In this document: piece by piece, positions 6,389-39,991 of the stretch
Layout: every line of letters begins with the position of its first letter
Numbering within the stretch: position 1 is the stretch's first letter
Assembly: GCA_049421965.1 (NCBI GenBank)
Contig: JBMSNZ010000001.1
Span: forward strand, 2,016 to 66,015
From: Erythrobacter sp.
GTDB taxonomy: Bacteria; Pseudomonadota; Alphaproteobacteria; Sphingomonadales; Sphingomonadaceae
Length of the DNA stretch: 64,000 nt
Direction of reading: 5' to 3'
Translations under genes and position numbers: made by a program
Notes under the pieces: generated by a model
Database searches by the model: none
Seen by the model: the letters and a program-made list of their open reading frames with translations, nothing else
Told to the model about the DNA's origin: nothing

Positions 6389-6919
6389 ATGATCCTGCGC
6401 CCCGCCACGCCAGCCGATGTCCCCGCCCTCGCACGCCTAGGTCGCGACAGCTTTGTCGCGACTTTCGGCGATCTCTATCGCCCGGAGGACCTCGCCGCCT
6501 TTCTTGAGGCGGTCCATTCCGAACCGGCGGTCCTGGAAGAGGTGAACGGCGAAGAGTGCCGCTATCGCCTCGCAGAGGCTGAAGGGGAACTCATCGGCTA
6601 TTGCAAGTTGCGCTATCCCGGCAGCTTTGCGGGTCGTTCGGATGCACGAAATCCAATCACGCTCGGCCAACTCTACACTGCCCCGGGCAGCACCGGCAGG
6701 GGAATTGGCACAGCGCTGATGGACTGGGCGATCGGCGAGGCCCTCGCGCTCGGCTGCGATGCGATCCAGCTGTCGGTTTATGCCGAGAACTTCGGTGCGC
6801 AGCGGTTCTACCAGCGTTATGGCTTTGCCAAGATCGCCGACATTACCTTCCAGGTGGGTGACCACGTCGACCCCGAATTCCTTTATGAGCTGCGGCTTGA
6901 TCAGGAGAAGATGCTATGA
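6389..6919 (+). CDS. GNAT N-acetyltransferase (PaiA-like)
   Basis: QLYTAPGSTGRGIGTALM; LSVYAENFGAQRFYQRYGF. Confidence 0.85.
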   Translation: MILRPATPADVPALARLGRDSFVATFGDLYRPEDLAAFLEAVHSEPAVLEEVNGEECRYRLAEAEGELIGYCKLRYPGSFAGRSDARNPITLGQLYTAPGSTGRGIGTALMDWAIGEALALGCDAIQLSVYAENFGAQRFYQRYGFAKIADITFQVGDHVDPEFLYELRLDQEKML

Positions 6920-38307: not shown

Positions 38308-38997
38308 ATGAGCTTGAAACAACCGCTTCGCGCTCGCGCGCTCAAGCTTGCTGCGGTGCCGTTGCTGCTGGCCGGGCTTGCCGCCTGCGCTTCGCCGGGC
38401 TTCAAGGCCGATGTCTCGCGCTTCCAGGCGCAGCTGCCGGCCCCGGCTGGCGAGAGCTTTGCGGTGGTGGCAGACGATCCGGCGCTGGCCGGCGGCCTCG
38501 AATTCGCGCGCTATGCCGATCTGGTCGAAGCGCAGATGGAGCGGCTCGGCTACAAGCAAGCCGCCGAGCCCGGCCAGGCCAGCCTGCTGGTGCGGTTCGA
38601 TTACGGTATCGACAATGGCCGCGAGAAAGTGCGCACCACCGATACCGGCTTCTACGATCCGTTCTGGGACCCGTGGTATCGCGGCTATTATCGCAGCCGC
38701 TATTACCGGCCGCGCGGGCTGTGGGGCTATGGCTTCTATGATCCCTGGTTCGGCGGCCCCGAAATTCGCAGCTACACGGTCTATACCAGCGAGATCGACC
38801 TCAAGATCGACCGGGCCGGCAGCGGCGAGCGGCTGTTCGAAGGCAAGGCCCAGGCGGTATCGACCTCCAACCGGCTGCAGCACCTCGTGCCCAACCTGGT
38901 CGAGGCGATGTTTGTCGACTTCCCCGGCAATTCGGGTGAGACCCTGCGCATCACGATCCGGCCCGAGGAAACCAAGGTCAAGCGGATCGAGAACTGA
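38308..38997 (+). CDS. DUF4136 domain lipoprotein
   Basis: LAAC lipobox; aromatic/Gly-rich middle segment; RLFEGKA..LVEAMFVDFPG. Confidence 0.78.
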   Translation: MSLKQPLRARALKLAAVPLLLAGLAACASPGFKADVSRFQAQLPAPAGESFAVVADDPALAGGLEFARYADLVEAQMERLGYKQAAEPGQASLLVRFDYGIDNGREKVRTTDTGFYDPFWDPWYRGYYRSRYYRPRGLWGYGFYDPWFGGPEIRSYTVYTSEIDLKIDRAGSGERLFEGKAQAVSTSNRLQHLVPNLVEAMFVDFPGNSGETLRITIRPEETKVKRIEN

Positions 38998-39018
38998 TTT
39001 CGCTGCCATCGCAAAATG

Positions 39019-39050
39019 GAAAGGGCGGCACCGCAAGGAGCCGCCCTTTC
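39019..39050. terminator. Bidirectional terminator between DUF4136 and yjhX
   Basis: GAAAGGGCGGC / GCCGCCCTTTC perfect 11-bp stem between convergent genes. Confidence 0.75.
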
Positions 39051-39060
39051 GCTTTGTGGT

Positions 39061-39318
39061 TCAGCGGTTGTCGAGCTGCGCCCGGACCGCCAGCAAACCT
39101 TCGCGCGTGATGCGATAGGCCGTGCCGTTCTGGCTGCGGATCAGCCGCCGCTTGCGCAGGCGTGCGAACACGCCAAGCGAGCAATCCACCAGCCGGAATC
39201 CATCGCGGTTGTAACAGTCGACCGTGATTATGCGGCCCCGTTCATCGCGCTGGTATTCGATCCGTCCACCCTGCGCGAGCACATGCAGCACGCGCTGCTC
39301 ATGTTTCGAAATATTCAT
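39061..39318 (-). CDS. yjhX: YjhX/TopAI family (UPF0386) protein
   Basis: 85 aa [51 protein letters not shown] matches the family as I recall it. Confidence 0.85.
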
Positions 39319-39322
39319 GGGA

Positions 39323-39450
39323 AGAGACTTCCATAACGCTGAGGTCAATGACCACGCGCCCACGGTGCCGAACTGTCCGGCACGAGGCGCGACGCTGCCC
39401 ATTGCCCACGAGATTTCGCGGGGCCGGGCGCTCAGCGGATGGCAGTCTCT
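39323..39450 (-). promoter_or_regulatory. Structured 5' leader (translational attenuator) of yjhX
   Basis: AGAGACT-G-CCAT-C-CGCTGAG pairs with CTCAGCG-TT-ATGG-A-AGTCTCT (18 bp); inner hairpins GTGCCG/CGGCAC and CGCGCC/GGCGCG. Confidence 0.65.
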
Positions 39451-39455
39451 GACAT
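39432..39455 (-). CDS. Candidate leader peptide (uORF) MSETAIR, toiL-like
   Basis: GGGGAA RBS then ATG TCA GAG ACT GCC ATC CGC TGA; sequence complementary to the yjhX RBS region. Confidence 0.6.
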
Positions 39456-39526
39456 AATTCCCCGACCGGAAACGGAAGCGCGATCTAGGAGCAAGGCAGC
39501 GCTACGGTCAAGCGCCGCATAGGTTA

Positions 39527-39991
39527 TCAGCCCAGCAGCCTTTCGTGCCCGCCAGTCGATCCGAACCCGCCCGCGCCGCGTGCGGTCTCGTCGAGTTCTT
39601 CAACCTCGTGCCAGGCCGCCTGAGTGACGGGTGCGAGCACCAGTTGCGCCACGCGGTCCCCGCGCGCGATCGGAAAGGGATCCGCACCATGATTGATGAG
39701 GATCACCTTCAATTCACCCCGATAATCGCTGTCGATCGTACCTGGCGTGTTGGGCACCGTGATGCCGTGCTTGAGCGCCAGCCCGCTGCGGGGGCGGACC
39801 TGGATTTCATATCCTTGCGGGATCGCCACGGCGAAACCGGTTGCGACTGCATGGCGCGCACCGGGAGCAATGGTAACCGTTTCGGCCGCGACAATGTCCA
39901 TCCCGGCGGCACCGGCGGTGGCATAATGCGGCAGCGCCAGCCCTGCACCATGCGGCAGGCGCTTGATCTCCACCCCCACCGGTTCAGCCAT
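39527..39991 (-). CDS. dut: dUTP diphosphatase
   Basis: [38 protein letters not shown]. Confidence 0.97.

Follow-up and report, generated by a model that had tools for sequence, protein, structure and literature searches.

To our knowledge, among the bacterial upstream open reading frames (uORFs) described so far, toiL of Escherichia coli is the only one for which sensing of several unrelated ribosome-inhibitor classes has been demonstrated, all studies of it having been made in E. coli. The toiL-topAI switch was established experimentally (Baniulyte & Wade, eLife 2025, PMC12121999). Ribosome-targeting antibiotics induce topAI via stalling on toiL, which frees the topAI ribosome-binding site, and topAI that is left untranslated undergoes Rho-dependent termination inside the gene (PMC12121999). 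Induction was also observed with 23S rRNA mutations that slow the ribosomes; chloramphenicol fails to induce topAI, for which the authors suggest the lack of Ala, Ser and Thr codons in toiL as the cause (PMC12121999). As read from the MG1655 sequence, toiL (ATG CTG GAG AAT GTA ATC ATC CGA TAA, that is MLENVIIR*) lies 139 nt before topAI; its peptide does end in Ile-Arg, as stated in an earlier reading of the locus described below, made from its sequence only. As for distribution, the conservation figure of the preprint (bioRxiv 10.1101/682021, Figure 4 supplement 1) presents ToiL for Enterobacteriaceae species only, the eLife text refers to bacteria encoding topAI-yjhQP (PMC12121999), and no report on alpha- or betaproteobacterial yjhX leaders was found in the literature searched.

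The yjhX locus and its leader in Erythrobacter sp.

The window analyzed here is a 64,000-nt stretch of Erythrobacter sp. DNA (GenBank assembly GCA_049421965.1, contig JBMSNZ010000001.1, positions 2,016 to 66,015), and all coordinates below are those of the window unless a locus is named. Its yjhX gene (Table 1) encodes a protein that matches the YjhX_toxin profile (PF09857) over its full length (positions 1-85 of 85; 135.8 bits at a cut-off of 27, E 5e-40), which, together with the identity to TopAI, confirms the name given to the gene in the sequence-only reading. The closest YjhX relatives belong to Erythrobacteraceae and other Sphingomonadales. A longer ORF of 113 aa beginning at an in-frame ATG at 39402 (39061-39402, minus strand) was rejected as the yjhX frame, because MNISK, at 39318, is where both the Pfam model and all of the homologs begin; gene callers could report this extended ORF as yjhX, which is a point of warning for annotation.

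Table 1. Features of the yjhX leader and its surroundings in the window (all on the minus strand; positions are given from the lower to the higher coordinate).
Feature	Position	Strand	Description and basis
toiL-like uORF	39432..39455	-	ATG TCA GAG ACT GCC ATC CGC TGA = MSETAIR*; sequence reading and homology to E. coli toiL
uORF Shine-Dalgarno-like GGGGA	39459..39463	-	sequence; pairs with UCCC 39322-39319 in the full-length fold
Repressing helix, 5' arm	39431..39450	-	within the uORF, from codon 2 to the stop plus 1 nt; folds and repeat finder
Repressing helix, 3' arm	39323..39343	-	CUCAGCG-UU-AUGG-A-AGUCUCU; holds the yjhX Shine-Dalgarno-like GGAAG (39332-39328)
Leader interior, three hairpins	39343..39429	-	39429-39397, 39391-39355 and 39353-39343; minimum free energy (MFE) fold
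yjhX/topAI homolog	39061..39318	-	85 aa, MNISKHEQ...QLDNR; Pfam YjhX_toxin, 54% identity to E. coli TopAI
Predicted leader-yjhX promoter	39483..39511	-	TTGACC 39511-39506, 17-nt spacer, CTAGAT 39488-39483
Terminator-like hairpin	39013..39049	-	AAAGGGCGGC-loop-GCCGCCCUUU, then CCAUUUU; fold of -36.5 kcal/mol

The gene order, all on the minus strand, is coaBC (41816-39984), dut (39991-39527), a 208-nt spacer and yjhX, and dut lies immediately 5' also in several of the closest relatives of this yjhX. The coaBC stop overlaps the dut start at 39984-39991 (ATGGCTGA), which suggests translational coupling of these two genes. On the other side, the stem-loop of the terminator-like hairpin occupies 39049-39020, with a U-rich tail behind it, and the next gene after yjhX, encoding a DUF4136 protein (38308-38997; ORF list and Pfam), is convergent; hairpin and convergent neighbor together indicate that yjhX stands alone. 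A promoter for the leader and yjhX was proposed on the basis of the TTGACC-N17-CTAGAT arrangement and of a cTTGAC box which is kept 51-65 nt 5' of the uORF ATG in about 40 of the 81 leaders compared below. Such a promoter would place the transcription start near 39476, although a strict E. coli-type scan of the leader called none. Searches of sequencing runs brought up metagenome DNA only, besides two runs of low share and unspecified type, and no RNA evidence. Judging from these predicted signals, yjhX appears to be monocistronic, with a promoter and a terminator of its own. Just past the dut stop, a hairpin GCGGCGCU...AGCGCUGC (39506-39518; flanks 39518-39496) holds the proposed -35 box; it may be a weak dut terminator or an insulator between two transcription units.

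The partners of topAI in the E. coli operon were not found at this locus. Searches with YjhQ (tblastn) detected no yjhQ adjoining yjhX in the window and none in 80 related loci within flanks of 1.5 kb, and no GNAT antitoxin gene of the topAI-yjhQP type lies directly downstream of yjhX in the window. The sole YjhQ-like sequence in the window is a generic GNAT acetyltransferase ORF (6389-6919, plus strand, 176 aa) at a distance of 32 kb from yjhX; its match is weak (26% identity over 104 aa, E 0.001), and nothing found points to a role as an antitoxin. Likewise, yjhP was not found next to yjhX in the window or in the related loci, except for one Rhodocyclus locus. There, in Rhodocyclus tenuis (L061:1821-2561), yjhX is followed directly by a homolog of yjhP (73% identity to the E. 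coli protein) and yjhQ is missing, so the three genes of the E. coli operon do not always occur together.

Upstream of yjhX, the sequence-only reading had noticed a ribosome-binding site and a seven-codon ORF at a distance of about 135 nt; both can be read directly (Table 1), with 137 nt from the uORF ATG (39455-39453) down to the yjhX ATG. The UCCC with which the GGGGA of the uORF pairs is situated immediately 5' of the yjhX ATG. MSETAIR agrees with MLENVIIR in Met1 and Glu3, in having a small hydrophobic residue at the fifth position and in the C-terminal Ile-Arg before the stop. Some of its codons are rare in the window, namely TCA (2 of 97 Ser codons) and ACT (8 of 113 Thr codons); ATT is avoided there as well (16 of 122 Ile codons).

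The interrupted 18-bp helix between the uORF and the region before yjhX, proposed in that reading, was recovered at the same coordinates in MFE folds and by a repeat finder. The latter reported two inverted arm pairs, 39323-39334 with 39439-39450 (12 nt, 92%) and 39337-39343 with 39431-39437 (7 nt, 100%), and the MFE helix consists of the segments AGAGACU:AGUCUCU (7 bp), CCAU:AUGG (4 bp) and CGCUGAG:CUCAGCG (6-7 bp). The folds also agree with the remaining elements of the proposal, since they cover the GGAAG and enclose three further hairpins. The 231-nt leader has an MFE of -100.8 kcal/mol as compared with -83.1 +/- 4.8 kcal/mol for its dinucleotide-shuffled versions, none of 200 of which folded as well (z -3.68). 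In one fold the uORF Shine-Dalgarno sequence pairs with UCCC and the yjhX AUG (39322-39315), and in a fold of longer context the uORF AUG is paired with the yjhX AUG region; both ribosome-binding sites thus lie within the structure. A permissive scan of the leader against Rfam 15 returned noise only (best 12.7-14.6 bits against gathering scores of 55-200).

Conservation of the short ORF and of the pairing arms

A genome scan with the window YjhX gave 332 relatives, 80 loci of which were kept, nearly all from alphaproteobacteria and a few from betaproteobacteria; 81 usable leaders were drawn from these loci, the window and E. coli. An uORF of 5-10 codons with ATG, frame and in-frame stop is present in 80 of the 81, starting 101-215 nt (median 126) 5' of yjhX. 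In the single exception, Tsuneonella rigui (L056:1378-1758), TTA stands in place of the TGA stop and the frame runs through the leader into yjhX (MKETAARL...VNVSKHEQ), a case of natural uORF-yjhX fusion or else of an error in the sequencing. A Shine-Dalgarno-like purine run is found at -15..-4 of the uORF in 64 of the 81 leaders. The arrangement occurs in Sphingomonadales, Caulobacterales/Hyphomonadaceae, Rhodobacterales, Hyphomicrobiales, Rhodospirillales-type MAGs and Rhodocyclales, hence the conservation expected earlier for Sphingomonadales turned out to be broader, extending to other alphaproteobacterial orders and to Rhodocyclales.

The 81 leaders encode 60 distinct peptides. A core Glu-(Ile/Asn/Thr/Leu/Ser)-(Ala/Val/Cys), in nucleotides GAG-AnT-GyN, is present in 70 of them, and the length varies around it, with 1-4 residues before Glu and 0-5 after Ala/Val; the third base of the Ala/Val codon is free to vary, as it should be in a translated ORF. 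The peptides can be arranged as a chain from E. coli to the window: MLENVIIR, MLEIVAIR (Rhodocyclales), MSENVAIR (Thalassococcus, Rhodobacterales), MSENVIR, MSEIVIR and MSEIAIR (Erythrobacteraceae), MSETAIR. The peptides of clades farther away are different (MSTTSQSR, MFSSSETR, MSAPTA, MSPIAALARY), but the arrangement is kept. A regular expression for the mini-ORF matched 73 times in 634,940 scanned bases, 72 times at the yjhX leader position, and the remaining match likewise lies 5' of a yjhX. The shortness of such peptides precludes a statistical score of homology, and the case for homology rests on the position, the chain of intermediates and the 72 of 73 pattern matches at the leader; on these grounds the MSETAIR uORF is very probably a toiL homolog.

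Two further observations concern the codons and the start of the uORF. The codon after the conserved Glu ends in T in all 57 unique uORF cores (ATT, AAT, ACT, CTT, TCT; in the window ACT, 39446-39444), and the genomes of these loci nevertheless avoid such T-ending codons. As this T is paired in only about 60% of the leaders, pairing alone does not explain it; it may make a slow, G:U-wobble-decoded codon ahead of the critical Ala/Val codon. In seven loci of Hyphomonadaceae/Caulobacterales type (L023, L031, L033, L037, L038, L055, L067) a TTGAC box stands only 37-39 nt before the uORF ATG and a Shine-Dalgarno sequence is absent. In these clades, translation of the six-codon uORF (M-x-x-E-I-A*) probably takes place on an mRNA that is leaderless or nearly so.

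Alignment of the leaders had been suggested as a check, with a conserved short ORF ending in Ile-Arg and covarying stems as the expected outcome. The short ORF is indeed kept and the arms co-vary in swap tests; however, the C-terminal part of the peptide varies, Ile-Arg not being present in all clades, and the sequence-only alignment gave no consensus helix. MAFFT with RNAalifold yielded zero consensus pairs on 31 leaders and 11 on 10 leaders, because the pairing register, along with the interior hairpins, shifts between clades. For this reason per-sequence folds, swap and shuffle controls and a permutation of duplex energies were used instead; the evidence for co-variation comes from these folds, from the swap tests and from an alignment fitted to the structure, which has only 11 rows.

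In the individual MFE folds, at least 8 nt of the uORF region were paired with the yjhX initiation region in 77 of the 81 leaders. The mean number of uORF:initiation pairs was 16.7 for the cognate combination, 9.9 for a swapped initiation region and 5.9 for a shuffled uORF arm. The arm duplex averaged -24.6 kcal/mol for cognate arms versus -19.8 for non-cognate arms and -17.3 for the reversed cognate arm, and after removal of row and column effects the cognate excess was -4.7 kcal/mol (z -12; 0 of 20,000 permutations), the arms of near-identical relatives acting as cognates in this test. Coding segments of the same locus gave -23.2 and -20.9 kcal/mol against the cognate mean; this control is a weak one given the higher GC content of coding DNA, and the reversed arm and the permutation provide cleaner ones. 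Complementary partners were found at the same uORF position (ATT/AAT, AAT/ATT, ACT/AGT and CTT/AAG), the ACT of the window pairing with AGT and the ATT of its relatives with AAT, and the middle base of the codon after Glu has its partner as U:A in 26, A:U in 8 and C:G in 3 cases.

A covariance model seeded with the single window leader collected 11 rows (9 true relatives and 2 probable false matches), in which 86% of the cells were paired, whereas shuffles gave 61% and slid controls no more than 44%, and 12 of the 17 uORF:RBS pairs changed on both sides. The interior hairpins (helices 4-7) also stay paired through two-sided changes in close relatives (90-96% of cells in this model-fitted alignment). 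Being fitted to the structure, the alignment serves as supporting evidence only. Across clades the leader interior differs in sequence, length and number of hairpins.

The proposed switch and its alternatives

According to the mechanism proposed here, the transcript would probably start about 20 nt 5' of the uORF, from its own promoter, and the ribosome-binding site, start codon and body of the uORF would pair with the Shine-Dalgarno/start region of yjhX about 110 nt downstream. Without stress, ribosomes would clear the uORF fast, the helix would re-form and yjhX would stay untranslated. A ribosome held on the uORF by ribosome-targeting compounds or by other translation stress, whether at initiation, within the Glu-x-Ala/Val core or upon reaching the stop codon, would cover the 5' arm and free the 3' arm, so that yjhX, the product of which is a putative topoisomerase I inhibitor, could be translated. 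Since the helix has the entire uORF as one of its arms, stalls at all three of these sites should be effective, as proposed for toiL.

To mimic the stall, the uORF was masked from 14 nt before its ATG to 10 nt past its stop, and the cost of opening yjhX from -18 to +12 was computed. In the window, the predicted ensemble cost was 16.7 kcal/mol without and 9.2 kcal/mol with the mask, the corresponding E. coli values being 16.1 and 9.7 kcal/mol; the mean of the 81 leaders fell from 13.1 to 8.9 kcal/mol, with a lower value in 69 of them. In the masked window leader a small GGAAG/CUUCC hairpin is still possible locally, and the predicted unpaired fraction of the initiation region rose only from 0.20 to 0.27.

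Homology and anatomy support the toiL-like mechanism put forward in the sequence-only reading. There is good reason to regard the leader of the window as a translational attenuator homologous to that of E. coli toiL-topAI, for which the anatomy, homology, conservation and arm co-variation come from sequence, and the translation of the uORF, the stalling and the inducing stresses come from E. coli. That the uORF acts as a stalled-ribosome switch on yjhX translation is likewise likely. A signature of Rho loading was searched for in the leader and in the ORF, and no C-rich, G-poor segment was detected (C/G 0.72-1.18), a composition that by itself is uninformative as to a role of Rho.

The thermodynamic picture would fit equally well a constitutive coupling, in which the helix merely sets a low basal translation of yjhX and ordinary translation of the uORF opens it briefly, with no sensing, stalling or role in stress. 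We consider this unlikely, since the Glu-x-Ala/Val core is kept where the pairing register and the flanking codons differ, which suggests that the nascent peptide or its codons are under constraint, and not just the passage of a ribosome, and since in E. coli normal translation of toiL leaves topAI repressed and stalling is required (PMC12121999).

Another possibility is that the signal is a physiological one, i.e., that ribosomes pause at the rare uORF codons (TCA and ACT here, ATT in relatives) under a shortage of tRNA, amino acids or translation factors, as in leader-peptide attenuation. The use of these codons, the invariant T-ending codon after Glu and the induction of E. coli topAI by ribosome-slowing 23S rRNA mutations would suit such a reading. 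It is opposed by the absence of a run of one regulatory codon and of a terminator/antiterminator pair: MSETAIR contains no codon run, and a terminator scan gave no site in the leader on the yjhX strand and a single terminator-like site inside yjhX on the other strand, hence the leader does not correspond to a classical amino-acid transcription attenuator. Moreover, the T-ending codon may specify Ile, Asn, Thr, Leu or Ser, which leaves no one amino acid as the possible signal, and altogether this explanation seems quite improbable.

Least of all does a purely RNA-level element (a riboswitch, a thermometer or a leader binding an sRNA or a protein) with an untranslated small ORF deserve credence, for, in spite of the GAGAnTG nucleotides being conserved even at a wobble position and the interior hairpins co-varying in close relatives, ATG, frame, stop and a length of 5-10 codons are kept in all leaders but one, a Shine-Dalgarno or leaderless arrangement persists despite 60 different peptides, the interior diverges between clades, no Rfam family matches, and the E. 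coli homolog is translated.

Relation to described regulatory leaders

Taken together, the comparisons favor the stalled-ribosome switch and indicate, at the level of sequence, that the toiL-type leader is far more widespread than published, occurring in alpha-, beta- and gammaproteobacteria, and this in an antitoxin-less context. The sensor would accordingly be old and travel with yjhX rather than with the toxin-antitoxin operon. Some 60 natural peptide variants mark the constrained positions (Glu, the next, U-ending codon and Ala/Val), which offers a starting point for mutagenesis and structural studies of the way in which so short a nascent chain senses the condition of its ribosome. For annotation, a recurrent unannotated mini-ORF has been identified, and the question is raised of the role of an antitoxin-less TopAI homolog under translation stress. 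A more far-reaching reading, which we offer tentatively and hold to be possible rather than probable, is that toiL-yjhX forms an ancient module of Proteobacteria, with the Glu-x-Ala/Val core and its U-ending, G:U wobble-decoded codon as an intrinsic pausing sensor of general translation stress; YjhX would then be ancestrally a stand-alone topoisomerase I stress effector checked only by the uORF switch, to which the antitoxin pairing of E. coli was added later.

Among the described systems, the multi-drug-sensing uORFs of whiB7 in actinobacteria and of the vmlR, cplR and vga(A) leaders likewise couple ribosome inhibition to a downstream stress gene (PMC12121999), but they are unrelated to the window leader in sequence and host, several of them operate via transcription attenuation, and their targets are resistance factors or a regulator. 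The macrolide-inducible leader peptides of ermCL/ermBL type (translational attenuation) are similar in that the mRNA is remodeled when a drug stalls a ribosome on a short leader ORF, whereby a downstream ribosome-binding site is exposed. They are unrelated in sequence, however, and the Erm switch comprises two hairpins, responds to one drug class and controls a resistance gene, whereas in the window the uORF itself would be an arm of the repressing helix, so that stalling at any of its codons should be effective, and the regulated gene is not a resistance gene. With the type II toxin-antitoxin system TopAI-YjhQ of E. coli, the window shares the YjhX/TopAI family, its yjhX being without an adjoining YjhQ-like gene.

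The closest system is toiL-topAI itself, the peptide of which is the same as that of Salmonella Mia-127. The window uORF differs from toiL in having 7 rather than 8 codons and Thr4/Ala5 instead of Asn4/Val5; yjhX is not followed by yjhQ or yjhP and appears to be monocistronic beside dut, and its GC-rich leader shows no obvious site for the loading of Rho. Considering that toiL contains no Ala, Ser or Thr codons, the Thr and Ala of the window peptide imply that its spectrum of inducers may differ from that in E. coli. On the other hand, the two loci have in common the gene family (54% identity), the position of the uORF (137 versus 139 nt) and related tiny peptides, in both of them hairpins are enclosed by pairing between the body of the uORF and the Shine-Dalgarno/start region of the gene behind it, and the energy change predicted upon ribosome occupancy is nearly identical.
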